From an uncultured bacterium (lineage in GTDB: Bacteria > UBP6 > UBA1177), in NCBI GenBank assembly GCA_905233945.1, contig CAJOFY010000022.1, positions 1,490 through 65,489 on the forward strand: a stretch of 64,000 nucleotides of DNA, written 5' to 3'. Below, one piece after another: positions 5,615 through 47,089 of the stretch (positions within the stretch are counted from its first letter, which is position 1; every line of letters starts with the position of its first letter). A model generated the notes under the pieces. That model searched no databases. It had not been told where the DNA came from and saw nothing but the letters and a program-made list of their open reading frames with translations. The translations under genes and the position numbers were made by a program.

Positions 5615-8422
5615 TTAAATCCCTACATTGAAATAAAAACTGACATCGTGTGTATCGGTTAGTCCGTATCCTGTTCCGAAAATGAACATCACGGGAGCAC
5701 GGTAGACAATGTATGTCAGAAGCCTGATTTCAAAGCCTGTTGAAGCAGAAAAATGACCGTTGAAAACTGAAACATCGTCAAAAACCGTTCCTGCATCGAA
5801 GAAAACAGCTCCCTGAATGTTTCTGAACATGAGCGGAAACGCGCCAAGGTTGCTTTCAAGCGAAACGATGTGGAACTGAAGCTCATTCCTTGACAAAAAA
5901 GCGTGATGACCTTCAGCCACGGTTCCGTTGAAGCCGCGCATAAGAAGCGAATATGAATTCCGGCCGATAAAATCGTTCAAATCGGTGATTCTTCTCTCTT
6001 CTTCCGCGCCGGTCACAGAAATTTCCTCATCCGAAAGGAATTCCATATAAAACGAATTTTTTGTAACAAATCCCAGCTTTCCGCTTTTTGAAAGGAGAAA
6101 ACTCAAAGTTATCTGCGGCGCGAATGTCAGTTCCTCGTTTTTAGTGAGGAAAAGTTTTGAAAAAACAACCGGGGCTGAAAACGAGAAATTGTTCATCGGC
6201 TCGCTCAAAAAACGGCTCGACGAATTAAAATTGAGGTTGAAAGTATAATTCAAGCCGAAACTCAAAATCACGTCGTCTTCGTCTTTCGCCCTCTCCTGTT
6301 GCGGCTTTCGCGGTTCTTTGACATCCATCGTGACTCCGCCGATCCCGGCACTCCAGCCTAAAGAATGACCGACTGAAACGACGTCGGAAAGCGCGCCTGC
6401 CGCCGGATGGCTGAAAACGCCTGTAGATGCAGCGCCGAGCATAAAACGGTTCGTCAGAACGCGGGAAACATCGGGATCATCAACATTTTCAGTCTGATTT
6501 GAATAGTTGAAAAACGCGCGGAATGAAGGGAGGACCGCATCATCGTAATAGTTGAGAAGCACATAGTGACGGCCGCTCCCGCCGAAAGTTTTTGTGTAAG
6601 TTATATCGTAGGAGCGCATCTGGTCATTCGATTTTCCCATTACAGTCGCACCGACAAGCCAGACATCGAAATTGGTCGAAAACTGCGGATACCAGAGCGA
6701 TGGAAACATTCCTTCGTAAAATTTTGCTTTCGAAAGTTCGTGCTTCAGCTCATCCTTTTTCCCTTTTTCAACCGTAGTGACACTTGCCTGCAAAGTTTCC
6801 GCGCCGTTTTCATCGATCTCGCAGGAATCGGGATAGAATCCGTCGTTATCGAAAGTGAGAAAATATACTTTTTTGTCAAAAACTTTCGGAAAAATTGCTG
6901 TTTCAGACAATGTACAGAGCTGAACCGCCTCGTTTTTTTCCAAATTCAGGCGCATCGGAACTATTTTTGCCCCTTTTTCGCTTGAAAACACCAGGGTTTT
7001 GTCATTCTCGAAGTGGACGCTGTACTGCTCGCCGGGAATGTCGATTTCCTTGAGTTCGCCGCTTTCGATATCAAAAAGGAAAATGTTCTTCTCGCTTTCA
7101 AAGCGGTTTCCGCTGAAGGCCATGATTTTTCCGTCTTCCGAAAAAGTTAGGCTGTAGATCGAATCGATTTTCGGAAATTCCCATTCTTTCAGAACTTTGC
7201 CGCTGTAATCGATTTGCGTTATGCGGTTTATTCCGTCACGGAAAGATGTGAAAAATATGTCATCGTTTTTACCGAAAAAGGCTTCGAGAACGCTTCCGTT
7301 TTCGGTGAGCTGACGAATCTGCGAATTTTTTTCCTTCAAAAAGAGTTCGGATCTCGAGAACCTGCCGCCGTTCTGCACTGTCTGAGTGAAAATAGTGATT
7401 TCATCCTTTTCAGCAAACGAATCGACGCGGCTCATAAGCCCCAGCTTATTCATTTTTCTGCCGTCAAAACTAAAAAGCGCACGTTCCGACTGGTTTGCGG
7501 CAAAAAAGCGGTAATCAGTGGAGTCAAGATCGGCGTAAACTGTCGAAAAACGTTCTTCCGTCCAGGGTTTTGCGGCTTTTTTTGACTCATTCAGAACCCG
7601 TTCGCGGTTTCCACGGATAAAATCTTTGTAAAGCCCGTAGATCGACTTGTGGAAAGCCATTTTTCCGGCACGCGTCATGAGAAACGGGAAAAAGTCGTCG
7701 CTCAGTTCCTCGAAAAAGCGTTTCATCCCGTCGGCACCGACCTTTTCAACAAGATAGCTGTAGAAAAAAGTGCCGTAAAGATAAGGGAGATTGCCGCCGA
7801 GCCAGTGGTCAGTGACACCCGAAAGCTCGCCTAACTTCAACTCAGTTCCCGCCTTGAAAAATGAGTCGAGATAACTTTTGTAAAGCGGACTGTTGAGACG
7901 CCCCTTCCCTTCCGAAATGCTTTCGCTGTAAACCGCCGCACCTTCGATCATCCAGGTCGGAACCGTTCCGCCGATGAAGTAGAAATCACCGAAAATGAGG
8001 TTCATCACTCTCGGAAATCCGCGCGCCTGCCCGATCTGCGTCGAATGGGTGTATTCGTGGACATGCAGACCGAATTCCCAGTTTTTGTAACTTGAAAGCG
8101 TGGAATATCTTTCCGGAGGATAAATATAGAGAAATATTGAGTTTTTCATAAAAGCATTAGACCAGCCGTTCGCCGTGTCGGTCTCTCTGTCGTAAACCAC
8201 GGCAATCTTTTTTTTCGGAGTCCAGCCATAAAGTTCTTTTATGAACTCTTCGGAACGCTCGGCATCAGCGATGAGCCTGTCAATGACCGACGGATCAAGA
8301 TTCGATGAAAAATAAAGGATCTGGTGCTCAGTCTCATACTTTGAAAATGAGACAGCTTCTTCAGCAAAAAGGGTGAAAGAGAAAAGAAACGTTAAAAGTG
8401 AGATTAGAAGTAATTTTTTCAA
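5615..8422 (-). CDS. large secreted protein with HExxH zinc-metallopeptidase motif and beta-propeller (TolB/WD40-like) region
   Basis: Signal peptide; HEYTHS (HExxH) at ~aa 120; repeated beta-strand-rich propeller-like segments; aromatic-rich C-terminus. Confidence 0.45.
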   Translation of the reverse strand: MKKLLLISLLTFLFSFTLFAEEAVSFSKYETEHQILYFSSNLDPSVIDRLIADAERSEEFIKELYGWTPKKKIAVVYDRETDTANGWSNAFMKNSIFLYIYPPERYSTLSSYKNWEFGLHVHEYTHSTQIGQARGFPRVMNLIFGDFYFIGGTVPTWMIEGAAVYSESISEGKGRLNSPLYKSYLDSFFKAGTELKLGELSGVTDHWLGGNLPYLYGTFFYSYLVEKVGADGMKRFFEELSDDFFPFLMTRAGKMAFHKSIYGLYKDFIRGNRERVLNESKKAAKPWTEERFSTVYADLDSTDYRFFAANQSERALFSFDGRKMNKLGLMSRVDSFAEKDEITIFTQTVQNGGRFSRSELFLKEKNSQIRQLTENGSVLEAFFGKNDDIFFTSFRDGINRITQIDYSGKVLKEWEFPKIDSIYSLTFSEDGKIMAFSGNRFESEKNIFLFDIESGELKEIDIPGEQYSVHFENDKTLVFSSEKGAKIVPMRLNLEKNEAVQLCTLSETAIFPKVFDKKVYFLTFDNDGFYPDSCEIDENGAETLQASVTTVEKGKKDELKHELSKAKFYEGMFPSLWYPQFSTNFDVWLVGATVMGKSNDQMRSYDITYTKTFGGSGRHYVLLNYYDDAVLPSFRAFFNYSNQTENVDDPDVSRVLTNRFMLGAASTGVFSHPAAGALSDVVSVGHSLGWSAGIGGVTMDVKEPRKPQQERAKDEDDVILSFGLNYTFNLNFNSSSRFLSEPMNNFSFSAPVVFSKLFLTKNEELTFAPQITLSFLLSKSGKLGFVTKNSFYMEFLSDEEISVTGAEEERRITDLNDFIGRNSYSLLMRGFNGTVAEGHHAFLSRNELQFHIVSLESNLGAFPLMFRNIQGAVFFDAGTVFDDVSVFNGHFSASTGFEIRLLTYIVYRAPVMFIFGTGYGLTDTHDVSFYFNVGI

Positions 8423-11349: not shown

Positions 11350-12675
11350 ATGATTTTTAAAAGGAAACTTTACGACAAAATGCTCAGGTGGAAAGAGGAA
11401 CGGAAAGGCACTTCCGCACTGTTGCTGAAAGGGGCAAGACGTGTCGGAAAATCCACGCTTGTCGAGCAGTTCGCAAAAAATGAGTATAAATCCTATATTC
11501 TTATTGATTTCGCTCATGTTCCCAAAAAAATCAATGCACTCTTTGACGATATGAGTGATCTGAATTTCTTCTTTATGCACCTTCAGATTGAAACCGGCAT
11601 CACTCTCTACGAACGCGACTCTGCAATCATTTTCGACGAGGTGCAGCTTCAGCCGCTGGCACGGCAGGCGATAAAATATCTGGTAAAAGACGGCAGATAC
11701 GACTACATCGAAACGGGCTCGCTGCTCTCGATCAAAAAGAATGTTCGTGACATCGTAATTCCTTCTGAAGAAACCAGAATGACACTTTATCCTATGGATT
11801 TTGAGGAATTTTACCGGGCTTTAGGGAACGAGAGCACTTTTGAAATTCTACGAAAGTTCTGGGATATGAAGAAACCGCTCGAAAGTTCACACCGCAAACT
11901 GATGCGCGATCTGCGCCTTTATATGCTTGTCGGAGGTATGCCGCAGGCTGTTGACACATACCTTCAAACCAACAATTTGCAGGCTGTGGATGAAAAAAAA
12001 CGCGAAATAATCGAACTTTACAAGGATGATTTCAACAAAATAGACGGAAGCGGCAGGGCTTCGCAGCTTTTCGATGCAATTCCTTCACAGCTGACAGGCA
12101 ATGCCGGACGCTATCAGATTTCAAGCGTGCTGCCGAATCAGGATGCCATGCGTGTCGCAGAAATTGTGGCTGACATGGCTGACAGCATGACAGTTTCTCT
12201 GGCATATCATGTCAACGACCCTGTCATTGGAATGCCGATGACAAAAAACATCTACCGTTACAAAATGTTTGTCGCGGACACCGGGCTTTTTGTGACCCTT
12301 GCCTTCCGTGACAAGTCTTTTACCGAAAACACGATTTACAGCAGACTGCTAAGCGATAAACTTGAAGCTAATTTAGGCTATATCTATGAAAATTTAGTCG
12401 CTCAGATGCTGCGAAGCGGCGGAAACGAGCTTTTTTACTACACTTTCCCGACCGAGAGCAACCACAATTACGAAATAGATTTTCTGCTTTCCAGAGGCAA
12501 TAAGCTCTGTCCGATAGAAGTCAAGTCATCAGGATACAAAACACACAAATCACTTGATGCTTTCTGCGAAAAGTTTTCGTCGCGTGTCGGTGAAAGATAC
12601 CTGATTTACACAAAAGATTTCCACAAAGATGGCGAAACTACCTGCCTTCCGGCATATATGACACCATTTTTATAG
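11350..12675 (+). CDS. AAA+ ATPase of the AAA_14/DUF4143 family
   Basis: Walker A GARRVGKST; DxxxxIFDEVQ Walker B; C-terminal DUF4143-like region. Confidence 0.75.
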   Translation: MIFKRKLYDKMLRWKEERKGTSALLLKGARRVGKSTLVEQFAKNEYKSYILIDFAHVPKKINALFDDMSDLNFFFMHLQIETGITLYERDSAIIFDEVQLQPLARQAIKYLVKDGRYDYIETGSLLSIKKNVRDIVIPSEETRMTLYPMDFEEFYRALGNESTFEILRKFWDMKKPLESSHRKLMRDLRLYMLVGGMPQAVDTYLQTNNLQAVDEKKREIIELYKDDFNKIDGSGRASQLFDAIPSQLTGNAGRYQISSVLPNQDAMRVAEIVADMADSMTVSLAYHVNDPVIGMPMTKNIYRYKMFVADTGLFVTLAFRDKSFTENTIYSRLLSDKLEANLGYIYENLVAQMLRSGGNELFYYTFPTESNHNYEIDFLLSRGNKLCPIEVKSSGYKTHKSLDAFCEKFSSRVGERYLIYTKDFHKDGETTCLPAYMTPFL

Positions 12676-16889: not shown

Positions 16890-16978
16890 TAATTTCAGCA
16901 ATTTGCACATGCAAATCGCTGAAATTAAACAAAAAACTTGATTTTTCAAAAAATATTCGTAGTATGCGTCCGCCTTTC

Positions 16979-17056
<78 letters not shown>

Positions 17057-17088
17057 GCAGTTCTTTGGCTGCCGGATGCTTTGAGTGT

Positions 17089-17165
<77 letters not shown>

Positions 17166-17197
17166 TTTTTGATGTTCTTTTTAATTTGAAGATACGT

Positions 17198-17273
17198 GGT
17201 GGGTGTAGTTCAATGGTAGAGCACCGGATTGTGGATCCGGGCGTTGTGGGTTCGAGCCCCACCTCCCACCCCA
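17198..17273 (+). tRNA. tRNA-His (anticodon GTG) with G-1
   Basis: Extra 5' G pairing with discriminator C; anticodon loop TTGTGGA; GGTTCGAGCCC T-arm. Confidence 0.75.
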
Positions 17274-17286
17274 TTACGCAGAATGT

Positions 17287-17362
17287 GGGCCCTTAGCTCA
17301 GCTGGTAGAGCAACTGACTCTTAATCAGTGGGTCGAAGGTTCGAATCCTTTAGGGCCTACCA
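17287..17362 (+). tRNA. tRNA-Lys (anticodon CTT)
   Basis: GGGCCCTTAGCTCAGCTGGTAGAGC…; anticodon loop CTCTTAA. Confidence 0.8.
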
Positions 17363-17431
17363 TCTTTTTTCTACTTTGAACATCCTCACACAGTTTTTAA
17401 GACTTTTAAAAAAGGATAAAATTCTATCCTT

Positions 17432-17514
17432 GCGAAAGTGGCGGAATTGGCAGACGCACCAGACTTAGGATCTGGCGGGAAACCGTGGGGGTTCGAGTCC
17501 CCCCCTTCGCACCA
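17432..17514 (+). tRNA. tRNA-Leu (anticodon TAG), type II with long variable arm
   Basis: GCGAAAGTGGCGGAATTGGCAGACGC…; anticodon loop CTTAGGA; long extra arm CGGGAAACCGTG. Confidence 0.75.
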
Positions 17515-17569: not shown

Positions 17570-18871
17570 ATGGATTACAAAATCAATCATCTCAGCACAG
17601 TGGAAAAAGAGATCGAAGTCAGCTTTTCTGCTGAAGAGGTTCAGGCTCAGTTCAAACAGGAATACTCACAGCTTTCACACTCGGTAAACATCAAAGGTTT
17701 CAGGCCGGGCAAAGCTCCGCTCAACGTTCTGAAACAGTTCTACGGCAAAAACGTAAAAGCTGATGTAGAGCATCACTTCATTTCCGAAGGTATGCAGGAA
17801 GCAGTTCTCAAGGAAAAACTCAGACTTGCAACAAATCCCGAGATTTTTGACGAAACTGAACTTACCGAAACCGGCGCTTTCACTTTCAAACTCAAAGCTG
17901 AAGTTTTCCCCGAAATCGACATCGAACTCAAACCTTTCGAGCACGATTTCACTCCGATAAAATACGACGATACCATGCTTGAGAACGAACTTGAAGCAAT
18001 CAAGGCGAAGTTCATAGAATACAAAGAGAGCGAAGACGCGCTTTCGGCTGAAAAAGACAGACTCGTTATCTCCTTCGTCGGAAAAATCGACGGCAAAGAA
18101 GTCGAGAACACAGCTGGAAAAGACGTAACAGTCATTGTCGGTGATGGCAAATTCGTTCCCGATTTTGAGAAAGCGCTTTACGGCCACAAGAAAGGTGATT
18201 CCTTCACTGCCGACGTCAAATTCCCCGAAGATTACAGGTCAAAAGAACTTGCAGGAAAGACAGTTCAGTTCACAATTGACGTGACAAAAGTCGAAAAATG
18301 CGAGAACGCTCCTGAACTTACCGACGAATTCCTTGCAGGAAAAGAAGGTTATCCGGACACTGTTGCAGAACTGAAAGAGCAGATTAAGAAAAATATTGAG
18401 AACTATCTTAACGACATTTCGATGCAGGGCAAAAAGAGCATCGCTATCGAAACTTACGTCAAAGAATACGAGTTCGAAGTTCCGCCGTCATTCATGCTGA
18501 ACGAGAAAAACGCAAGAATCGATGACTACAAAAGAGAGTTTAAGGCTGAAGAAGTTCCTGCTGAAGAGCTTGCAAAGATCGAAGACGACGCAAAATTTGC
18601 AATCAAGAGATACATCATCCTCAACACTCTCGCCGACAAACTTGACATCACCGTAACCGATAAAGATGTTGACATAGCATTTGCACAGGAAGCTATGCAG
18701 TACGGCCTTCCGGCTGAATTTGCGAACAAACTCCGCGAATATGCGGGCGAAGAGAGAATCAATGCAAAGAAATATGAAATAAAAGAGCAGAAAGTTCTCG
18801 ACAAAATGGTTGAAAAGATGATTTTCACCGAAAAAGCTCCTGAAAAAGCTGACGATAAGAAAGCTGAATAA
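17570..18871 (+). CDS. tig: trigger factor
   Basis: 433 aa; N-terminal ribosome-binding GFRPGKAP signature; central PPIase-like and C-terminal domains. Confidence 0.9.
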   Translation: MDYKINHLSTVEKEIEVSFSAEEVQAQFKQEYSQLSHSVNIKGFRPGKAPLNVLKQFYGKNVKADVEHHFISEGMQEAVLKEKLRLATNPEIFDETELTETGAFTFKLKAEVFPEIDIELKPFEHDFTPIKYDDTMLENELEAIKAKFIEYKESEDALSAEKDRLVISFVGKIDGKEVENTAGKDVTVIVGDGKFVPDFEKALYGHKKGDSFTADVKFPEDYRSKELAGKTVQFTIDVTKVEKCENAPELTDEFLAGKEGYPDTVAELKEQIKKNIENYLNDISMQGKKSIAIETYVKEYEFEVPPSFMLNEKNARIDDYKREFKAEEVPAEELAKIEDDAKFAIKRYIILNTLADKLDITVTDKDVDIAFAQEAMQYGLPAEFANKLREYAGEERINAKKYEIKEQKVLDKMVEKMIFTEKAPEKADDKKAE

Positions 18872-20469: not shown

Positions 20470-20545
20470 GGGTCGGTAGCTCAGATGGAAGAGCATCTGA
20501 CTTTTAATCAGGGGGTCGCGGGTCCGAGTCCCGCCCGACCCACCA
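20470..20545 (+). tRNA. tRNA-Lys (anticodon TTT)
   Basis: GGGTCGGTAGCTCAGATGG…; anticodon loop CTTTTAA; CCA encoded. Confidence 0.8.
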
Positions 20546-20565
20546 TTCGCTCTCACTTTTTTGGT

Positions 20566-20640
20566 GACCTTTTCGTCTAGTGGTTAGGACATCGGCCTTT
20601 CACGCCGGTAACGGGGGTTCGAGTCCCCCAAAGGTCGCCA
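20566..20640 (+). tRNA. tRNA-Glu (anticodon TTC)
   Basis: GACCTTTTCGTCTAGTGGTTAGGAC…; anticodon loop CTTTCAC; architecture parallels E. coli tRNA-Glu. Confidence 0.75.
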
Positions 20641-39235: not shown

Positions 39236-41692
39236 TTAGTCCAGAATCCCGGTTTCTTTCAGCAGATTTTCCGTGTCGTATTCCGCAAGTTCTTTGCGGT
39301 AGCCGTTTTTGATTATGTGGTATTCGCCGGTGAAGGCGTCGAATTTCTTCATTACGCTTCCGAGTTCTGTGTAATGGCGGATCGTCATTTCAAGAGTTTT
39401 GTCATTAAAATCAACGACTTCCAGGATCTCTGTTGCTGAATCGTAGTCTGATTTTTCGAAAAATTTCACGCGGTATGTGCTTGAAGGAAGGGTGCGGAGG
39501 ATCTTTTCCGCTTTTTTGATCTTTTCGCGGTCGCAGAAGGCAAAAGTGAGGAATTTTATTCCGGAATTTTCAAGAATCGAGTTGAGCTTCTCCAGAGTTT
39601 CAGCTTCGTTGACTTCCTCGGTGAGCCATACCGTGCCGAATTCCTCGTCGACTTCGACTCCGACCGGTGCGGGAAACGCCAGATTGAAGCGCGGCATGGG
39701 GTGAAAACCGTCGGAATAGAGGATCTTGAGGTCGCTCAGAGTGAGAGCTTTGAAGAGAAATGAAACAAGGTCAAGGTGTCCTACACTTATCGAATTTCCG
39801 TGTTTCGAAAGCGAGAAAATGTATGGAAAAGAGTTGTTTTTATTGCTTTTTTCGGGAATTTCAAAAGTCTCGTTCTCGTCAAGCGCCTTTCCGGTGAACT
39901 TCAGCGGCCTGATCTCCTTGAAGTCGCACGCGCCACACTTGTTGCAGATACCCGTTTTCGCGCAGTCGGGCGTTTCCTGAAAATTGAACGCTTTTTCGCG
40001 CTCTTTCAGAAGAAATCTGCGATCGATCCTGAGATCTATATGCTCGTAGGGAAGAGGCTTATCCAGCGGTTTTTCAAGGTAAGTGCTTTCCGGGTCTATC
40101 CCTGCATAAGCCAAACCTTCGTCCCAGAGAGCAGGATCAAAACTTTCGTCTTCCGTCTGGAGGCCTTTCATATTTTTCGCAACAAATTCAATGACTTTGC
40201 CGTATTCACGTCCTGCACGGCTGAGGTATCCTTCGACTGTGCTGATCTCCTGATCGTGCCATGCGAGTTTCAGATTTCTTATGCCGCGGAGGTTTTCGAT
40301 TATGATTTTCTGCTTTGCCTTGATTTCGGCAGGGCTCGACATCTTTTCCCACTGGAAAGGGGTGAAAGGCTGCGGCACAAAAGTCGAGAAACTTGCACTA
40401 AGCATAGCCTTTTTACCGAATCTTTTCACGTAGTTGCACATCTTTTTGACGAGTTCTACCGTCTCAAAAAGATCCTCCTCCTCTTCATGCGGAAGGCCGA
40501 GCATAAAGTAGAGTTTGACCGCCTGCCAGCCGTTTGAAAATATCGTGTTGAGAGCGTTCAGCAGGTCTTCGACGCTGTTGCCCTTGTTTATCATTTTGCG
40601 AAGCCTGTCGCTTCCAGATTCGACCGCGAGAGTGAAACCGACTTTGCGCCCTTTTCTTATCGCGTGGGTGATTTTCGGTGTGATCGTCTCAGTCCTGAGG
40701 CTCGGAAGCGAAACCGAGATCCGGCGGCTGTAACGGCTGTATGAGCGGACCAAAATATCCTCGATCTCGCTGTGGTCGGCAGCCGAAAGCGAGAGAAAAC
40801 CCGCCTCGTCGTAGCCCGAAGTTCTGACTACTCTGTCAAGAATTTCGCAAATATTTTCAGCACTTTTCTCTCTGTGCGGGCGGTAGAACATACCCGCCAT
40901 GCAAAATCTGCACCCTCTCGTGCAGCCGCGCATTATTTCAATCGTGAAGCGGTCGTGGATCGTCCTCATCGCAAATATCGGAGCGTCAAAAAGCGAGTCG
41001 GGATCGTAGTTGAGATCCTTTAGGACCGCTCTTCTCGCTTCAAAACCCGAAAGCGAGCCGTCGGGATTGATTTTGACAGAGTTTTCATCGTGCTTCGACG
41101 GAATATAGATTGCCGGAATTTTGGAAAAAGCCTCGATCCTCTTCTGTTTTTCTTTAATATTTTCAAGAATATCCATAAATTCTTCGGCGTAAGGCTCAAA
41201 CTCGCCGATCGAAACCATATCAATGAAATCAGCCATCGGCTCAGGATTGCACATGACAGGCCCGCCAGACCAGATTATCGGATAATCACTTGAATTTATT
41301 CTATCTTTTGAATGGATCGGAATGCCTGCGATATCCATGATCTTAAGAAAATCAGGATATTGCAGCTGATACTGGAAAGAAACTGCAATGATATCGAAAT
41401 CACGGTAATTCACCCCGTGCATCATCGAAGTGAGCCCGCCGCTCGCCTTTGCCTCCTCAAACACATCCTTCTGCGGCGAAAAACCGAAATCTACCAGAAA
41501 TCCTCGGCGGTTAAAGAGCGAATAGAGTATCTTCACCCCCGTGTGGCTTTGCGCCATCTCGAAAAGATCAGGAAAAAGTATCAGTATTTTCGGCTTATTA
41601 GGATCAGTTTTCACCTTTACAGGCTCGATAAACGGAGCAAAATAACGCCCGGGCTTTTCGATCCTGCGCAGAAAAGAAGTTATGAGTTTCAA
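39236..41692 (-). CDS. B12-binding-domain radical SAM protein fused to DUF2344-like C-terminal region
   Basis: 818 aa; N-terminal B12-binding-like region, CTRGCRFCMAG rSAM cluster, long C-terminal extension; widespread conserved protein of unknown function. Confidence 0.7.
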   Translation of the reverse strand: MKLITSFLRRIEKPGRYFAPFIEPVKVKTDPNKPKILILFPDLFEMAQSHTGVKILYSLFNRRGFLVDFGFSPQKDVFEEAKASGGLTSMMHGVNYRDFDIIAVSFQYQLQYPDFLKIMDIAGIPIHSKDRINSSDYPIIWSGGPVMCNPEPMADFIDMVSIGEFEPYAEEFMDILENIKEKQKRIEAFSKIPAIYIPSKHDENSVKINPDGSLSGFEARRAVLKDLNYDPDSLFDAPIFAMRTIHDRFTIEIMRGCTRGCRFCMAGMFYRPHREKSAENICEILDRVVRTSGYDEAGFLSLSAADHSEIEDILVRSYSRYSRRISVSLPSLRTETITPKITHAIRKGRKVGFTLAVESGSDRLRKMINKGNSVEDLLNALNTIFSNGWQAVKLYFMLGLPHEEEEDLFETVELVKKMCNYVKRFGKKAMLSASFSTFVPQPFTPFQWEKMSSPAEIKAKQKIIIENLRGIRNLKLAWHDQEISTVEGYLSRAGREYGKVIEFVAKNMKGLQTEDESFDPALWDEGLAYAGIDPESTYLEKPLDKPLPYEHIDLRIDRRFLLKEREKAFNFQETPDCAKTGICNKCGACDFKEIRPLKFTGKALDENETFEIPEKSNKNNSFPYIFSLSKHGNSISVGHLDLVSFLFKALTLSDLKILYSDGFHPMPRFNLAFPAPVGVEVDEEFGTVWLTEEVNEAETLEKLNSILENSGIKFLTFAFCDREKIKKAEKILRTLPSSTYRVKFFEKSDYDSATEILEVVDFNDKTLEMTIRHYTELGSVMKKFDAFTGEYHIIKNGYRKELAEYDTENLLKETGILD

Positions 41693-41897
41693 AATATTCT
41701 CCTAAAACATGAATGTTTTCAGCAATTTACTCAATTTATTCAATTAAAAGAACTCTTGTCAAAAAACGGCAACACTTTAAGGGAAATTGCAGAAAATGCA
41801 AGAGTTTGCGGGCGAGCAGGCCACATTCAGCTCAACGAATACGAACACTCATTTTGCGGTCAAAAATTTTGACCGTAGAAAAGCGCGTTATTCAGCA

Positions 41898-41944
41898 GTT
41901 AAAACGGCAAATTTTGTAATTTTGTAAAAAGTTTACGGTTTAAC
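41898..41944. repeat. islet boundary repeat, copy a (GTTAAAACGGCAAATTTTGTAATTTTGTAAAAAGTTTACGGTTTAAC)
   Basis: Two further copies at 43116-43162 and 45716-45753 (consensus TTAAAGCGGTARATTTTGTGATTTTGTAAAAAGTCTACGGTTTAAC). Confidence 0.8.
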
Positions 41945-41970
41945 TTGAGAACAACGGATAATTTTTGGTT

Positions 41971-42118
41971 TACCACGGAACCGAGATAAGTCCGGAAAAA
42001 CCCATGAATGCAAGTGAGAGAAGACATGCTGTGACGAGCGCAGTCGCCTTGCCTCAAAACCATTCCCCGGAAATCCCGTTGCAGGCTTTTTTCAAGAGTT
42101 CAATGCCGGATTTTTACT
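41971..42118 (-). pseudogene. diverged duplicate of the rnfA 3' end (encodes …ALVTACLLSLAFMGFSGLISVPW* on the minus strand) plus shared downstream sequence
   Basis: Minus-strand translation matches the RnfA C-terminus (…[25 protein letters not shown]) with an in-frame stop just upstream; ~85% nt identity to the authentic 46502-46580. Confidence 0.75.
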
Positions 42119-42719
42119 GTTTTTTCCCGATCTCGCGGACTTTCCCAATGATTTCATTGATTTTGTCAAGCGTCATATCCGCGATACTGTTTTCTTCCGC
42201 GGTTTTCCTCATGTTTTCAACTGCGGAAACTACATTGTCATATTGAATGTATATTTTTTCCAGCAATTTTATATCACAGCATCTTTGTTTTATTCTGATT
42301 TCGTAATCTGCGAGTTCGCTGTCATCAGAAAACAGCAATTCCCTAAGTAAATTAGCAGTTTTTTGTATTTGAATCGTGTCGCTGCGGATAGCTTTGTATT
42401 GATTCTGCAAAAGACGACGGTATTTGTCATCGCCGATTTTCTCTATTTCAATAAGGATTAAAGCCGAATCTGTTACCGGAATCATATTGCTAAAATTGAT
42501 CGCTCCATACAAACCGGCAGATATTTTCCTGAAATCAATAGTATTTTTCATAGTTTTGTGCTTTGGCTTGGGTGAAGAGAACGGCGCATAATATTTAACA
42601 GAACCTATTTCAAGAACGATTCCGACATAAGGTCTTGTTTCGTGCTTGTTGTCGGCGACTTTAGCGTCATATTTCCTAAGAAAGTCTATGTAATCGTCTT
42701 TCACATGATAGAATCTCAT
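42114..42719 (-). CDS. ToxN/AbiQ-family endoribonuclease toxin (type III toxin-antitoxin)
   Basis: 201 aa; N-terminus MRFYHVKDDYIDFLRKYDAKV…YVGIVLEIGSVKYYAPFSSPKPKH closely parallels ToxN (MKFYTISSKYIEYLKEFDDKV…FIGIVLEIQGHKYLAPLTSPK). Confidence 0.8.
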   Translation of the reverse strand: MRFYHVKDDYIDFLRKYDAKVADNKHETRPYVGIVLEIGSVKYYAPFSSPKPKHKTMKNTIDFRKISAGLYGAINFSNMIPVTDSALILIEIEKIGDDKYRRLLQNQYKAIRSDTIQIQKTANLLRELLFSDDSELADYEIRIKQRCCDIKLLEKIYIQYDNVVSAVENMRKTAEENSIADMTLDKINEIIGKVREIGKKQ

Positions 42720-42730
42720 TTTTCCCCCTA

Positions 42731-42764
42731 AAAAAACAAAGGGCGGATAAACCGCCCTTTTTTA
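42731..42764 (-). terminator. intrinsic terminator between the toxI-like repeats and toxN (GGGCGG-UUUAU-CCGCCC plus U-run on the minus-strand transcript)
   Basis: 6-bp GC stem followed by UUUGUUUUUUU; same position as the attenuating terminator of characterised ToxIN loci. Confidence 0.65.
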
Positions 42765-42765
42765 A

Positions 42766-42900
42766 GTCCTCTGTTGTGGTCGAGGCTCACCGCTTTTTTA
42801 AGATTTCACTTAATGGTAGAAACTCACCGCTTTTTTCGGTTTCCAATTAAGGTCGGAACTTACCTGCGTCAAAAACTTTAGTCACTTTTTATTTAAAGTC
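42766..42900 (-). ncRNA. candidate ToxI-like antitoxin RNA: ~2.5 tandem 37-nt repeats (plus-strand units CTCACCGCTTTTTT-N23 at 42786-42822 and 42823-42859, partial unit 42766-42785)
   Basis: Direct tandem repeats immediately upstream (minus strand) of toxN and separated from it by a terminator; canonical type III TA arrangement. Confidence 0.65.
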
Positions 42901-42956
42901 AATAGATTTTTACAATAAATTAGAAATTTCTAAAGAATCTGTGAAGATTTTTAGTC

Positions 42957-43100
42957 TACCACGGAACCGTGATAAGTCCGGTGAAACCCATGAACGCAAG
43001 TGAAAGAAGGCCGGCGGTGACAAGCGCGATCGGCTAGCCTCAAAACCATTCCCCGGAAATCCCGATGCAGGCTTTTTTCAAGAGTTCAATGCCGGATTTT
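42957..43100 (-). pseudogene. second diverged duplicate of the rnfA 3' end (encodes [25 protein letters not shown])
   Basis: 26 codons identical or conservative to the RnfA C-terminus with many synonymous nt changes; upstream in-frame stop marks the crossover point. Confidence 0.75.
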
Positions 43101-43115
43101 CGACAGATCATGCCG

Positions 43116-43162
43116 CTTAAAGCGGTAAATTTTGTGATTTTGTAAAAAGTCTACGGTTTAAC
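43116..43162. repeat. islet boundary repeat, copy b
   Basis: See copy a. Confidence 0.8.
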
Positions 43163-43192
43163 CTAAAATTTTTGGATATTACAAAAACTAGG

Positions 43193-43621
43193 TTAAATGA
43201 AGACCTTCTCTATTTCTTCGAAGTTTTCATGTTTATATTTTTCAAACTCTTTCCTAAGACGGCTCTCTTTGGAAATATACAAATATTGGTTATTACTCTG
43301 TTTCCTCTTTCTGTAAACTGTTTGTTTCTGAGCTTTCAGCTGCCGTTCGACATCCCGCTTTGTTAAAAACAAATAAGCGGGTTCACTATCTTTTGTTTCA
43401 AGCACCTCTATCACAAAAAAATCGTTCTTGTCTTTAATCACTATAGAATTGTTTATGCTACGATTATCCATAGTTACAATATTTACTTGGATCCTTTTCA
43501 GTTTGTTTTCAGGCATAATCACAAGAATTTCGCGTTCTTTTCTGGTGGTACACGCAGAATAAAAAACTTCTCCACAACTGCTTAAGCCCTTAAGTATCAA
43601 TTTATAATTATTTTTTGACAT
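43193..43621 (-). CDS. hypothetical basic protein (142 aa) encoded downstream of the rSAM maturase
   Basis: GGAGAA RBS before ATG 43621; Lys/Arg-rich C-terminal half; no confident family assignment (weak, unconvincing GIY-YIG-like spacing). Confidence 0.4.
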   Translation of the reverse strand: MSKNNYKLILKGLSSCGEVFYSACTTRKEREILVIMPENKLKRIQVNIVTMDNRSINNSIVIKDKNDFFVIEVLETKDSEPAYLFLTKRDVERQLKAQKQTVYRKRKQSNNQYLYISKESRLRKEFEKYKHENFEEIEKVFI

Positions 43622-43651
43622 ATTTTTCTCCACTACAATTGATAAGAATTT

Positions 43652-44923
43652 TCAAACTGAGAGATTGGCTCTCTCTTCCAACTCACGAAGAGCCATTTCT
43701 TTTGTAAAATTACACAATTCAGCAAAATCTTTATCCGAGTAGGCAAGCTTATTACTGCAGCATTGGCTGTTGCAGTGATACTTCATAAAACAAGTTTCGC
43801 ATTCCTTAACCCTTTTTCTCTCATATAAATCACTAATACTTTTCATTTTATTTTCATCTACTAGCACAGCGTCGTTGCTTACGACACCATATTTCAACTG
43901 TTCAAATGCCAGAGCTCTGTTGTTGGAATTCCTGTGGCATGCGACAATGTCTCCTGACGGAGTAACACAAAATTCTCCACCACAAAAACGATTCCTGATA
44001 GATTGCAATGAATTTATTACGGAATTTCTCAAATAAATATTTTTGGTTTTTGCAACAGCCTTGGCTTTAAAAAAATAATTCATAAAATCATGATAATAAT
44101 TTTCCCATGTCAATCCTGGCATAGACACAAGTTCTAAATGAATTTTTCTGATTTTCGGATAATTTTCCGATACATACTCAACCATTTCCGGCATTTTTTC
44201 TACAGCTGTCTGCGTAATTGTAGTTCTAAAACCGAAATCAACTCCATTTTCAGCTAATAAGTCTATTGAATTTTTCACATCAACAAAACTTCCTTTTCCG
44301 GAAGGATAAGGGCGTTGTATGTTTTGAATTTCAGGGAGAATGTCGAAAGAACATCCAATATGAACCTGATTTTTCACAAGCCACTGTATTCGTTCAGCAT
44401 TCAGCAAAGTCGTGTTGGTCGTCAAACTTATACTTACTTTTTGATCTTTCTGCAGTTTTCTTATGTATTCAACAGCCCAAACAAACAACTCCCATTTTAC
44501 ACAAGGTTCTCCGCCGCCGATAAAAGAAAAATGCTTGCCTTTTGTTCTGCTGCTAAAAATAAAATCTATCGTGTTTTTCAGTTTATCTTTTGTCAGAGTC
44601 TCTGCAGAATGTTGTTCATGCGCATAACAATAAGTGCAAGCAAGATTACAAGCCTCCGTCAATATAAATACCGTATGTCTTTTCTTCATGCCGAATCCGT
44701 AATATTTATGGACTGTTGCATCTTGAGTTGACATAAGATCTGAAATTCTCTCATCCAAATCTGTATCGCAGCATCCACCATTTTTGAAAGATTTTTCTAT
44801 TTCGACAGCCTCGACATCTTTTGTGTAAAAAAGCCGCCTTTTCAACGGAGCATAAACTATATGCGTATTTTTTAAATGAGACTCCAACAAAAAAATTTCA
44901 TCCCCAAGACTCAGATATTTCAT
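43652..44923 (-). CDS. radical SAM / SPASM-domain peptide maturase with probable N-terminal RRE-like region
   Basis: CNLACTYCYA CxxxCxxC; GGGEP; C-terminal auxiliary-cluster cysteines (CGGEFCVTPSGDIVAC…CETCFMKYHCNSQCC) typical of SPASM/twitch RiPP maturases. Confidence 0.75.
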   Translation of the reverse strand: MKYLSLGDEIFLLESHLKNTHIVYAPLKRRLFYTKDVEAVEIEKSFKNGGCCDTDLDERISDLMSTQDATVHKYYGFGMKKRHTVFILTEACNLACTYCYAHEQHSAETLTKDKLKNTIDFIFSSRTKGKHFSFIGGGEPCVKWELFVWAVEYIRKLQKDQKVSISLTTNTTLLNAERIQWLVKNQVHIGCSFDILPEIQNIQRPYPSGKGSFVDVKNSIDLLAENGVDFGFRTTITQTAVEKMPEMVEYVSENYPKIRKIHLELVSMPGLTWENYYHDFMNYFFKAKAVAKTKNIYLRNSVINSLQSIRNRFCGGEFCVTPSGDIVACHRNSNNRALAFEQLKYGVVSNDAVLVDENKMKSISDLYERKRVKECETCFMKYHCNSQCCSNKLAYSDKDFAELCNFTKEMALRELEERANLSV

Positions 44924-44949
44924 CTGAAATTTTTCCTCACCCTAAATCA

Positions 44950-45129
44950 TTAATCAAAGCAATCATTATCATTGCAGTGATAATCCATACCGCAACCATT
45001 ATCATCACAGTCAAACGAACAAACATCGCATTTGTCATCACACATACAATCACACCAATCAACATTGCAAAAGTTGGAATTTTTGCTTGCACTCGCTTCT
45101 TCCAAACTGATCAAATCTGAAATAATCAT
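44950..45129 (-). CDS. candidate RiPP precursor peptide: 20-aa leader plus 39-aa core with 10 Cys and 13 Asp (CNVDWCDCMCDDKCDVCSFDCDDNGCGMDYHCNDNDCFD)
   Basis: GGAGAG RBS 6 nt before ATG 45129; 26 nt upstream of the rSAM-SPASM gene; recurring Cys-x(1-3)-Asp spacing as in freyrasin-type ranthipeptides. Confidence 0.6.
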   Translation of the reverse strand: MIISDLISLEEASASKNSNFCNVDWCDCMCDDKCDVCSFDCDDNGCGMDYHCNDNDCFD

Positions 45130-45352
45130 TTTTCTCTCCACGAAAAAATTAATAAAAAATACTATCTGAAACGGGACTCCCGAAACAGTCTTTTTTGAAA
45201 AATCATAATAACTTACCCCCCTCCCGACTACGGAAACGCAGGATTCCGGCAATATTTTAACGTTTTATTTACTATTAGTCAACACAATATTTACCAATAG
45301 TCAAAAAATATTTTCTGTATGTGCTATATTGAAAAAAGGAGGTGGTTTGAGT

Positions 45353-45664
45353 ATGGATGGCAAAACACTTGGCAAGCGGGTGAAAGCATTAAGGCGTAAA
45401 GCCGGAATAACGCAGCTTGATCTCGCGTGCCGGGTAAATATCAGCGAAAGCTACATCGCGTTGATAGAAGCCGACAAACGAAAACCTGGAATGGATATAA
45501 TCTCTACTTTGGCAAACGAATTTCATGTCTCTGTTGACTATCTTTTAAGCGGCAAAATATCAGAAGAAGACAACCTCATGCTCAAAGAATGGACATCTCT
45601 TATAAAGGAAAGACCTCTTAAAATCGTCCGCACTTTTTTTGAATGTGTGGACAGCAAAAAATAA
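45353..45664 (+). CDS. XRE-family helix-turn-helix transcriptional regulator
   Basis: HTH_3 signature (ITQLDLACRVNISESYIALIE); divergent from the precursor peptide gene; AGGAGG RBS. Confidence 0.75.
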   Translation: MDGKTLGKRVKALRRKAGITQLDLACRVNISESYIALIEADKRKPGMDIISTLANEFHVSVDYLLSGKISEEDNLMLKEWTSLIKERPLKIVRTFFECVDSKK

Positions 45665-45715
45665 TTTTCATTTTTGCGATCGGATTTTCGACCGCAGAAA
45701 CTCGCGTTTTTTGCC

Positions 45716-45753
45716 GTTTAAAGCGGTAGATTTTGTGATTTTGTAAAAAGTCT
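45716..45753. repeat. islet boundary repeat, copy d (truncated)
   Basis: GTTTAAAGCGGTAGATTTTGTGATTTTGTAAAAAGTCT; abuts the 3' end of the PIN gene. Confidence 0.75.
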
Positions 45754-45760
45754 GGAGATA

Positions 45761-46174
45761 TCAAAGTTTTTTCAGTGCTTCATCAACGCTGATTGCCGGA
45801 ATTTTAGAGTTTTTGAAATCTTTGAGATTTTCGGTAACGATGTAATCAAGATCGGCGTTCTCGGCACATTTCATCTGTAATCCGTCTTCGAGATCGAAAA
45901 AATCAGGATCGTTAAGAACTTCAAAAAAATCTTCCTGATATTCAGCAATTACTTGAAAGTTTGAAACTATCAAAAGTAAAAACTCTCTTCTGTCTGCAAC
46001 CGAAAAAAACTTTCTCGTGATATAAAAAATATCTGTCAGCGAGTGTGCGGAAACAAAACCGTTAAGTTTTTTGGCAAGACACTTTTTTACAAGCAGCGAA
46101 GCTTTCTCGTGAAACGGATTATTCGGCGTGAGATAATAAAGAATAATATTCGTATCAACAAAGATATTCTTCAT
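45761..46174 (-). CDS. PIN-domain (VapC-like) toxin
   Basis: 137 aa; N-terminal IFVDTNI with conserved acidic PIN residues; 4-bp overlap with upstream antitoxin gene. Confidence 0.7.
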   Translation of the reverse strand: MKNIFVDTNIILYYLTPNNPFHEKASLLVKKCLAKKLNGFVSAHSLTDIFYITRKFFSVADRREFLLLIVSNFQVIAEYQEDFFEVLNDPDFFDLEDGLQMKCAENADLDYIVTENLKDFKNSKIPAISVDEALKKL

Positions 46175-46413
46175 ACCCCATACCTCTCGTCAAGGTATTC
46201 AAGATATTCCTGCCGTGCATCGATCTGTTTGTCACTTTTGATGCAACCATTGAATTTTTCGAACAATCTCATTGTTTCTTCCTTAGACATTCCGCCTTTT
46301 TCTTCATGCTTTTTTTCATTCATGTTTCCGAGCGAAACGACTAAATTGTAGATTATCGTCTGCTGCTCAGTTGTAAGTGCGCTCAACGCTTTTTCGAAAA
46401 CTTCGAAGCTCAT
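46171..46413 (-). CDS. small antitoxin-like protein of the PIN TA pair
   Basis: 80 aa, precedes and overlaps the PIN gene; GGAGG RBS before ATG 46413. Confidence 0.55.
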   Translation of the reverse strand: MSFEVFEKALSALTTEQQTIIYNLVVSLGNMNEKKHEEKGGMSKEETMRLFEKFNGCIKSDKQIDARQEYLEYLDERYGV

Positions 46414-46501
46414 TTTAACCTCCATTCCGCAAAAACTCTTCTATTATACTCAATTTTTTTAGAAATGCGAGAGGAAATTATCAGGAATCAATGATGTGAA
46501 T

Positions 46502-47089
46502 CTACCACGGCACGGCGATGAGTCCTGTGAAACCCATGAACGCAAGTGCGAGAAGACCTGCGGTGACAAGTGCGATCGGTGCGCCTTTCATAGCTTCGGG
46601 GATTTCGTAAAGCTCAAGGCGTTCCCTGATTCCTGCAAAAATTACGAGTGCCAAGAAGAAGCCGAGAGCGGTCGCGATCGTGTAAACTACGCTCTGGAGA
46701 AGTTCGTAGTTTTTCTGCGTTACGAGTATCGCAACACCGAGAACGGCGCAGTTCGTCGTGATGAGCGGAAGGAATACGCCGAGAGCCTGATAAAGCGGCC
46801 GTGACACTTTTTTCAGAATGATTTCAACCATTTGTACAAGTGCAGCGATGACAAGGATGTATGCGACCGTCTGCATAAATTCGATGTGAAGCTTTGTCAG
46901 AACAGCCTTGTAGAGAATGTGCGTAACTGTCGTAGCCAAGGTCATGACGAAAAGGACAGCCGCGCCCATTCCGACCGAAGTCGAAACTTTGTTCGAAACA
47001 CCGAGGAAGGGGCAGATTCCCAAAAACTGCGCGAAAACGATGTTGTTTACGAGGATCGCGCTGATGAAAACAAGAATATATCCGGTCAT
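46502..47089 (-). CDS. rnfA: Rnf electron-transport complex subunit A
   Basis: 195-aa polytopic membrane protein; conserved RnfA/NqrE-family sequence. Confidence 0.85.

Follow-up and report, generated by a model that had tools for sequence, protein, structure and literature searches.

Is a small, cysteine-rich reading frame beside a radical S-adenosylmethionine (rSAM) gene the precursor of a ribosomally synthesised and post-translationally modified peptide (RiPP), and, if it is, which chemistry does the adjoining enzyme perform on it? We address this question for positions 43193-45664 of a 64,000-nucleotide stretch of DNA from an uncultured bacterium (contig CAJOFY010000022.1; this whole stretch is hereafter the window). 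The original prediction, made from the DNA alone, had placed there a regulator, a precursor transcribed divergently from it, a maturase and a small protein; the order is correct and all four genes were found where they had been placed. On the minus strand the precursor open reading frame (ORF; 44950-45129, 59 amino acids) is followed after 26 nucleotides by an rSAM/SPASM maturase gene (43652-44923, 423 amino acids, ATG at 44923), and this after 30 nucleotides by a basic ORF of 142 amino acids (43193-43621, isoelectric point 9.5), each of the three being preceded by a Shine-Dalgarno sequence, GGAGAA in the case of the last. On the plus strand, and divergent from this operon, lies a helix-turn-helix regulator of the XRE family (45329-45664) with matches to HTH_3 and HTH_19. 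Judged by comparative data, the locus is a genuine RiPP locus, and modification of the precursor by the adjacent rSAM enzyme is very likely. With less assurance, we favour reading the whole as a ranthipeptide-like RiPP cassette that is compact and complete in itself, belongs to an uncharacterised subfamily and has a linkage chemistry that we infer.

The peptide and its enzyme family

The peptide (MIISDLISLEEASASKNSNFCNVDWCDCMCDDKCDVCSFDCDDNGCGMDYHCNDNDCFD) divides into a leader of about 20 residues (MIISDLISLEEASASKNSNF), which carries the family motif I-S-D-L-I-S-L, and a core of 39 residues (CNVDWCDCMCDDKCDVCSFDCDDNGCGMDYHCNDNDCFD) that holds ten cysteines and twelve aspartates and ends in an aspartate. 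The original prediction was right about the ribosome-binding site (GGAGAG, 5 nucleotides ahead of the ATG), the ten cysteines and the distance to the maturase gene, while the thirteen aspartates that it gave to the core are those of the whole peptide, the predicted charge of which is about -13.5. Comparison with homologues of 79% identity in related contigs gave 5, 5 and 13 differences at the first, second and third codon positions of the frame rich in cysteine and aspartate; the precursors of close relatives keep all ten cysteines, and their sole insertion or deletion is of four codons and in frame. Because of this third-position bias, the retention of cysteines and the in-frame change in length, we take the Cys/Asp frame to be the one under selection. 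A protein search returned a single database homologue (P0121, 79% identity; P-numbers denote individual homologous proteins). No NCBIfam (E up to 0.1), Pfam or PHROG model matched the precursor, and eight related precursors had no NCBIfam match at E up to 10.

Homologues of the maturase at 32-88% identity occur in Bacteroidales, in Spirochaetia and in metagenome-assembled genomes from gut or rumen. The family is sizeable: at E up to 1e-5 it amounts to 448 clusters of proteins, and the best 120 listed are all near-full-length (about 420 amino acids). We fetched 181 loci (1.48 Mb in total, designated by L-numbers) for comparison and counted as Cys/acid-rich those small ORFs in which cysteine plus acidic residues make up at least 45% of a 20-residue segment. 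Between one and five such ORFs adjoin the homologous enzymes nearly always, on either side, and in this collection hardly any locus with an enzyme at least 32% identical to ours lacks one next to its rSAM gene. The linkage is seen in the window, L085, L086, L089-L091, L172-L181, L092, L005, L006 and L008. Among about 150 more distant rSAM loci the Cys/acid-rich ORFs are only sporadic, and in L014 and L100, with enzymes at 24-28% identity, Cys/Asp-rich peptides are encoded directly 5' of the enzyme gene.

The precursors of the window, L085, L086, L089, L174 and L006 have the leader motif [IV]S[DE][LI]x-x-[LF] in common; the first cysteine stands at residue 17-24 in most precursors, and the cores are hypervariable. 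The N-termini read MTISEIIELE... in L085 (three tandem copies), MKISEIIELD... in L086 and ...VSEIVFV in L006, with ...VSELLYL, ...VSELVFL, ...VSELIMM and MEISELIFL (L174, four copies) as further examples; they occur in loci that share no DNA similarity, and each is followed by an unrelated core rich in cysteine, aspartate and glutamate. Conservation of the small ORF in homologous loci, which had been proposed as a check, was thus found as a shared leader with a variable core, in several phyla. In L092, L172, L173, L174 and L008 the same enzyme family comes with a second, shorter type of core, C-x-D-P-x-T-G-x3-C-x-C-E-D-x. Taken together, these data make it very probable that the peptide is a substrate of the neighbouring enzyme. 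We found no description of this maturase and precursor family in the literature searched.

Several loci carry more than one precursor, with three to five Cys/acid-rich ORFs in tandem for one maturase (L085 7295-7919, L173 1076-3931 and L174 5272-5991); some of these precursors reach 16 cysteines and 19 aspartates in 89 amino acids, and a second or third rSAM gene is often present. L174 also has an ORF of 81 amino acids with five MCRNSGYKDPM repeats ahead of its second rSAM gene (6061-6306). Enterobacterial relatives of the maturase (L009 from Erwinia; the plasmid matches H1 and H2 from Edwardsiella and Salmonella) are 31-34% identical to it; the Erwinia enzyme scores 118 bits on the PapB model discussed below, and in L009, the one enterobacterial locus inspected, there is no Cys/acid-rich small ORF within 1.5 kb. 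The profile scans of genome and metagenome contigs used generic rSAM patterns, and the matches listed were mostly like QhpD or the anaerobic sulfatase-maturating enzymes (anSME) at 22-28% identity; L005-L009 and L092-L094 were informative among them, the rest serving as negative controls. Viral and plasmid searches yielded almost nothing related.

Fold and proposed chemistry of the maturase

In the alignment of 28 homologues the radical SAM motif C92-x3-C96-x2-C99 is invariant, and the C-terminal SPASM-type array of cysteines that had been claimed for the enzyme is complete and equally invariant (C314-x9-G324-x4-C329 ... C375-x2-C378-x5-C384-x3-C388 ... C404). Pfam sees only the rSAM core (PF04055, 63.5 bits, gathering score 29.5) and does not report the SPASM model PF13186; the cysteines of the array align with the SPASM regions of CteB and anSME, and all seven map on the first and second auxiliary clusters (AC1 and AC2) of CteB and PapB (PMC10177961). 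An eighth cysteine, C319, is likewise invariant and stands 5 residues after C314, at a position where the aligned CteB has Ala/Leu. All 28 sequences also have the triad C329-H-R331.

Three kinds of comparison place the enzyme. The top NCBIfam model is that of PapB (NF047865, 137.4 bits; E up to 1e-42 within the family), which matches all 28 members and has the best E-value of all models for each of them; for the maturase of the window it is followed by a nif11-type model, CcpM (96.2 bits), DynA, anSME (92.5), SCIFF (86.9) and QhpD (75.5). The best sequence match in the PDB is CteB (8.7e-22, or 8.7e-35 with the family profile), and CteB is also the best Foldseek match (E 2.5e-17, TM-score 0.69, 454 aligned columns) of an AlphaFold2 (AF2) model with a mean predicted local distance difference test score (pLDDT) of 91; anSME, ChlB and TigE come behind it. 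Because PapB and CteB rank first over anSME by hidden Markov model (HMM), sequence and fold, the maturase lies outside the cluster of sulfatase maturases, and the HMM comparison with rSAM-SPASM subfamilies that had been proposed (PapB 137 bits, anSME 92) speaks for the original assignment. One relative that carries the name 'CcpM' in its source, P0093, belongs to the family of the window at 38% identity. Residues 3-65 of the AF2 model form four beta-strands and two helices, and the alignment with CteB spans this N-terminal domain; from this model, residues 1-70 appear to be a beta/alpha domain like the RiPP recognition element (RRE).

Among the systems most similar to this pair are those of freyrasin and thermocellin. 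PapB and its substrate PapA of Paenibacillus polymyxa, which form the freyrasin system with its Cys-S-C(beta)-Asp links, have in common with it the combination of rSAM and SPASM domains, the AC1/AC2 cysteine pattern, the arginine after the second AC1 cysteine, and a core with many cysteines and aspartates in which cysteine is N-terminal to the acid; they differ in the leader, which in the family of the window is about 20 residues long with a different motif, in the extra invariant C319, in the hosts, which here are Gram-negative or uncultured gut bacteria, and in the mobile packaging with an XRE regulator and an ORF like PD-(D/E)xK nucleases. CteB with CteA, of the SCIFF family, provides the closest solved structure, with full-length likeness of fold including the N-terminal domain, and the same minimal architecture of two genes without a dedicated protease or exporter. 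CteB is, on the other hand, only about 20% identical, links Cys to C(gamma) of Thr, has Gln at the position of the arginine and seven SPASM cysteines instead of eight; and the precursor of the window does not match the SCIFF model TIGR03973, so that the ranthipeptide rule of antiSMASH, which is keyed to that model (PMC13289728), would not fire. QhpD (TIGR03906) forms Cys-Asp/Glu thioethers and has the C-H-R triad in common with the maturase, but its substrate is the enzyme subunit QhpC rather than a small peptide with a leader, and there are no qhp genes at the locus. The anSME enzymes (TIGR03942) have the same rSAM/SPASM fold and eight cysteines in the SPASM region; they lack the N-terminal peptide-binding domain and the arginine, their extra cysteine (C255) is upstream of the first AC1 cysteine whereas C319 is downstream, and the cassette has no sulfatase gene nearby.

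The arginine deserves attention with respect to the acceptor. The AC1 ligands are C344/C362/C413 in CteB and C352/C370/C421 in PapB, and a substrate cysteine or selenocysteine binds AC1 (PMC10177961). PapB becomes inactive with the replacement R372A, and this arginine has been proposed to bind the aspartate carboxylate (PMC10177961, PMC9413430). By motif register C314, C329 and C388 are the AC1 ligands and R331, which is C329 + 2, corresponds to R372 of PapB, the register being taken from the published C370/R372 (PMC10177961, PMC9413430). At the equivalent position a bona fide QhpD (L027, 653 bits) has C-H-R, CteB C-H-Q and anSME C-D-F; the acceptor of CteB is Thr, and the QhpD family is defined by formation of Cys-to-Asp/Glu thioethers (PMC11002830). 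The triad C-H-R occurs also in most of the distant loci fetched, and those sampled encode QhpD or QhpD/PapB-like enzymes. We consequently rejected R331 as a marker specific to the family; as far as sequences tell, arginine at this position tracks enzymes that make thioethers with acid acceptors and is not unique to the family of the window.

The cores give a second view of the same reaction. We compared the distance from each cysteine to the next acidic residue in 22 non-redundant precursors, a set whose members are partly related and internally repetitive, with that in shuffled sequences. Spacing 0 was found 69 times (46.5 in shuffles) and spacing 2 was found 52 times (22 in shuffles); cysteines without any downstream acidic residue numbered 2 where 15.7 were expected. 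The motif C-x-C-D was observed 29 times against 8.1 +/- 2.7, a count reached in 0 of 2000 shuffles. Nearly every precursor cysteine has an acidic residue within the next 0-2 residues. PapB requires cysteine N-terminal to aspartate and accepts CXnD with n = 0-6 (PMC9413430), which includes the spacings n = 0-2 of the window (PMC9413430); the polarity and spacings of the precursors are therefore compatible with a PapB-like reaction. The motif itself is different from that of freyrasin, with C-x-C-D and spacings 0 and 2 in place of a CX3D periodicity. The likeness to freyrasin that had been claimed thus holds in so far as PapB is the best model, and fails as regards membership of the PapB equivalog (137 bits against 340) and the CX3D pattern, which is depleted.

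The following sequence of events can be proposed. The RRE-like N-terminal domain would bind the short, strand-like leader motif I-S-D-L-I-S-L, the rSAM cluster would generate a 5'-deoxyadenosyl radical, and hydrogen would be abstracted from the beta-carbon of an aspartate. The first auxiliary cluster would hold the cysteine thiolate and R331 would position the acceptor carboxylate, so that a Cys-S-C(beta)-Asp thioether could form. Repeated up to ten times along the core, the reaction would yield a small, densely bridged and strongly anionic peptide.

Several observations weigh against this reading. The 137.4 bits on the PapB model stand against a cutoff of 340, and the maturase meets no curated family cutoff at all: it has 86.9 against 425 for TIGR03974, 96.2 against 500 for TIGR04068/TIGR04334, 92.5 against 349 for TIGR03942 and 75.5 against 453 for TIGR03906. 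The Pfam PqqD and RRE HMMs do not match it, so the RRE assignment comes from the predicted fold. Spacing 3, that of the CX3D motif, is depleted in the cores (5 observed, 15.2 expected), and the counts as a whole derive from the partly related set described above. C319 has no counterpart in CteB and could fill the AC1 site that binds the substrate cysteine in CteB, Tte1186 and PapB (PMC10177961); if it completes AC1 in this way, the mode of substrate binding and the mechanism would differ. Finally, the cassette has neither a protease nor an exporter nor any known type of immunity gene, and in lacking the first two it resembles SCIFF loci.

The most probable alternative is that the peptide is a real RiPP on which the maturase performs another chemistry, be it the alpha-carbon thioethers of sactipeptides, an oxidation of cysteine to formylglycine or a thioaldehyde in the manner of anSME, thiooxazole formation, or C-C or C-O cross-links. 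Every curated thioether family is missed by a wide margin, the eight SPASM cysteines resemble the number in fully ligated anSME and not the seven of CteB, PapB and QhpD (PMC10352776, PMC10177961), and sequence is a poor guide to what a SPASM enzyme does (PMC10288494). Yet the best matches by sequence, profile and fold are enzymes making thioethers to carbons other than alpha, the arginine proposed to bind the acceptor, common to PapB and QhpD, is invariant here, and the joint enrichment of cysteine followed by aspartate or glutamate in all cores is what a Cys-acid cross-linker would predict and what the other chemistries do not need. We regard a different chemistry as rather unlikely, and Cys-S-C(beta)-Asp thioethers of the ranthipeptide kind as somewhat more likely than not.

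The cassette at the rnfA hotspot and its probable regulation

The best sigma-70-like match in the region (TTGACT, 17 nucleotides, TAAAAT; 10/12 positions) lies on the minus strand at 45282 to 45254 ahead of the precursor, and from this promoter the precursor, the maturase and the 142-residue protein would be transcribed as a three-gene operon. A tandem repeat of 22 nucleotides (2.2 copies, 45266-45313, Tandem Repeats Finder score 68) overlaps the -35 element; it is a candidate operator, to which the divergently encoded XRE protein probably binds as a repressor. The -35 and -10 elements and a stretch of the 5' untranslated region (5'UTR, 45156-45198) are conserved with L085 and L086. These 43 nucleotides (minus strand) share 89% identity with the DNA that directly precedes the rSAM gene of L086, and L085 has a similar stretch, even though the precursors of these two loci are downstream of the enzyme. 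The stretch is possibly a conserved element for regulation or processing; Rfam had no match anywhere in the cassette, the stretch included.

The regulator matches HTH_19 (1.8e-11) and HTH_3 (2.8e-11) in Pfam and resembles HTH_VI and capH in PADLOC. It has 111 amino acids if translated from a TTG, and the ATG at 45353, behind GGAGG, is the likelier start. Close relatives have a different XRE protein of 91 amino acids, 32% identical, in the same divergent position, and L182 has a nearly identical copy of the latter next to an rSAM peptide cassette that is unrelated. Because other XRE genes hold the same place in this way, an XRE gene beside the precursor promoter is, as far as these sequences go, a recurrent design kept by non-orthologous replacement. 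Only close relatives (DNA identity of 85% or more) keep the XRE and 142-residue genes, and rSAM relatives at 63-67% identity have neither.

The 142-residue protein has a narrow distribution. Its homologues among 5.8 billion proteins fall into no more than 5 clusters (72% identity or higher), and all those with visible context lie 3' of the same rSAM gene. Three further, distant relatives came from an exhaustive HMMER search through 1.8 billion representative sequences. The gene for P0165, one of the three (E 8e-10; hhalign probability 97.5%), has on one side another type of Cys-containing precursor and on the other a different rSAM enzyme with a classical PqqD-like RRE, the 91-residue XRE gene adjoining. 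This cassette (L182, 1638-3841) is composed of the divergent XRE, a precursor of 55 amino acids, a 147-residue homologue of the 142-residue protein and the rSAM enzyme with its PqqD-like RRE. It is a second kind of rSAM peptide cassette in the same sample series, and its 55-residue precursor has the leader MPYQKPVFYAQ and four cysteines; a leader of this type (MTYQKPVIYVQ...) is also present ahead of a second rSAM/SPASM gene in L085 (precursor at 7946-8077).

P0165 and P0167 match PDDEXK_5 (PF11645) weakly, the former with 8.5e-5 and 23.0 bits, short of the gathering score of 26.1, and the latter with 0.022, also below gathering, and the protein of the window has no such match itself in Pfam. 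In its clade the putative catalytic Asp of 'WDIVV' is replaced by E, N or K and the Lys of 'IQVKT' by Asn, and a motif N-x-S-x-N-N-S is kept; the AF2 model of the protein has a pLDDT of 36. It is accordingly a lineage-specific accessory of rSAM peptide cassettes, probably with a degenerate PD-(D/E)xK nuclease fold. The gene is absent from L085 and L086, at 63-67% identity, and from all distant relatives, and the protein is therefore not essential to the peptide chemistry. P0165 also matches DUF4143 weakly; a gene for an AAA_14/DUF4143 ATPase is present at 11350-12675 of the window (plus strand), and in L179 a related gene (ATPase_2/AAA_14/DUF4143) makes up one of the cassettes at the rnfA hotspot.

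The operon and its regulator stand out from their surroundings. The DNA comes from an uncultured bacterium of the gut or rumen, and an ordinary housekeeping context of tRNA clusters (five tRNAs at 16978-17511 and two at 20470-20637, plus strand) and a trigger factor gene (17570-18871) confirms that the window is chromosomal. The four-gene unit has 35.5% guanine plus cytosine (GC) against 45% for the window. It is part of an AT-rich array of cassettes (41860-46500, GC 0.34-0.40, the flanks having 0.45-0.53) that lies between rnfA (46502-47089) and a gene for an 818-residue Radical_SAM_N2/DUF2344 protein (39236-41692). A repeat of 46-66 nucleotides, R, delimits the unit: the upstream copy is at 45718-45763 (wider match 45686-45763; direct-repeat families D3/D4), the downstream copy at 43117-43162, and a third at 41867-41944. 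Its 24-nucleotide core occurs three times in the window where zero would be expected by chance, and R is also present at the 3' end of cassettes in the relatives L086, L179 and L089. The 3' end of rnfA is found three times, the genuine one at 46501-46586 and copies at 42955-43040, following the downstream R, and at 41969-42054; the boundaries of the array are made of this duplicated end plus downstream sequence and are not canonical or clear attC sites. A block of 85% DNA identity with L176, L179 and L089, from 45140 to about 43023, covers the precursor, the rSAM gene, the 142-residue ORF and R, and its position in the array differs.

The neighbouring units are of the toxin-antitoxin (TA) kind. 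A ToxN/AbiQ-family toxin of 201 amino acids (42114-42850, minus strand; PADLOC AbiQ 6.6e-41) is preceded by two tandem 37-nucleotide repeats (42777-42850) that look like a type III toxin-antitoxin RNA array, and its unit is flanked by direct repeats of 154 nucleotides (41961-42114 and 42947-43100). Immediately downstream of rnfA, at 45761-46425 on the minus strand, lies a PIN-domain toxin of 137 amino acids with an overlapping upstream partner of 84; the pair is probably VapBC-type and the first cassette of the array. In related strains the flanking genes are the same and the cargo is other (RelB/ParE, YoeB, HepT/MNT, Abi_2, YhcG, ATPases), R ending each unit. The claim of a mobile cassette among toxin-antitoxin systems agrees with these repeat boundaries and with the strain-variable cargo, and from the sequences compared the cassette is horizontally acquired and mobile, at a strain-variable hotspot. 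The arrangement recalls integron-like arrays of TA and defence genes, in which short units, with or without a promoter, each close with a conserved repeat, the AT content exceeds that of the chromosome, and the content at one fixed chromosomal site differs from strain to strain. It differs from them in that none of ten window ORFs tested is an integron integrase, in that canonical attC hairpins are wanting and in that a RiPP operon is an unusual cargo.

This setting raises the possibility that the cassette is mainly a selfish, defence or competition module under XRE control, with the peptide as an intracellular or contact toxin, a signal or an antitoxin-like factor, in place of a classical secreted natural product, and the 142-residue protein as its immunity partner or effector. 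The AT-rich, repeat-bounded array shared with ToxN/AbiQ and PIN toxins, the TA and defence cargo at the hotspot of relatives, the likeness of the XRE protein to defence-associated regulators (HTH_VI and capH in PADLOC), the reappearance of the 142-residue family in L182, beside another rSAM peptide cassette and the 91-residue type of XRE, and the absence of exporter and protease would all be in line with it. Against it, PADLOC gives the rSAM enzyme only a generic likeness to the viperin core (pVip, 7e-17) and the 142-residue protein nothing, and no cassette protein fits a defence-system model; the nuclease catalytic residues of the 142-residue protein are not conserved; L085, L086, L173, L174 and the Bacteroidales loci have neither the XRE nor the 142-residue gene, some of them being outside hotspots; and location in the same island is weak evidence of function. 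We judge a primary role in conflict to be very unlikely. A broader proposal, according to which rSAM peptide operons move as integrase-less rnfA-hotspot cassettes made up of an XRE switch, a precursor, its maturase and a degenerate nuclease-like protein, the peptide and the latter protein form a conflict module of toxin and immunity, addiction or anti-phage type, and the maturase, with its extra invariant cysteine and C-x-C-D substrates, might build an undescribed thioether topology of adjacent or interlocked rings of two to four residues, is in our view speculative and quite unlikely as a whole.

Peptide identity and the meaning of the family

Two further explanations concern the nature of the peptide itself. 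An unmodified, metallothionein-like metal-binding peptide or Fe-S scaffold, whose adjacency to the rSAM gene would be regulatory or incidental, would account for the C-x-C and CC motifs, for the high cysteine content typical of metallothioneins and for the charge; we consider it highly improbable, as the adjacency to this one enzyme family persists across phyla, rearrangements and copy numbers and as the conserved leader-like N-terminus, typical of RRE-dependent RiPPs, would be left unexplained.

Public gene calls on several contigs give, in place of the precursor, a hydrophobic ORF rich in V, I and M (51-58 amino acids) in the +1 frame: at 44937-45092 of the window (minus strand), 5114-5290 of L089, 4378-4551 of L176 and 4548-4724 of L181. 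This frame is open and hydrophobic because the TGY-GAY repeats of the Cys/Asp frame are read in it as GTG, ATG and ATT; stops interrupt its 5' end in relatives, and the ribosome-binding site and ATG serve the Cys/Asp frame. That the 59-residue ORF is no gene, and that the true product is the overlapping +1 ORF or none, is extremely unlikely despite these calls, given the third-position bias, the broken upstream part of the +1 frame and the leader motif kept in distant loci without DNA similarity. Gene callers often miss or mis-frame precursors, and miscalls of this kind would hide the precursor family from protein databases.

With the RiPP reading retained, the family is distinctive in its own leader motif, in the C-x-C-D core motif and in the extra conserved cysteine of its enzyme, and the lineage of the window adds the packaging as a mobile cassette. 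No curated model captures the maturase family, and few of the Cys/Asp sequences seen are as dense as these cores. The pairing of enzyme and precursor is what a specialist would expect; what would come as a moderate surprise is how dense the core is, how far the family ranges taxonomically, and its association with the hotspot and with a PD-(D/E)xK-like protein. Ranthipeptides are known mainly from Firmicutes, and their standard mining proceeds via the SCIFF precursor model (PMC13289728). If the chemistry proposed here is true, Cys-Asp thioethers would extend to very short rings and to Gram-negative gut bacteria, and the family would offer compact pairs of leader and enzyme for peptide engineering. 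That a RiPP operon behaves as toxin-antitoxin cassettes do, at a hotspot that varies among strains, is relevant, in turn, to the spread of such peptides and to the purpose they serve.

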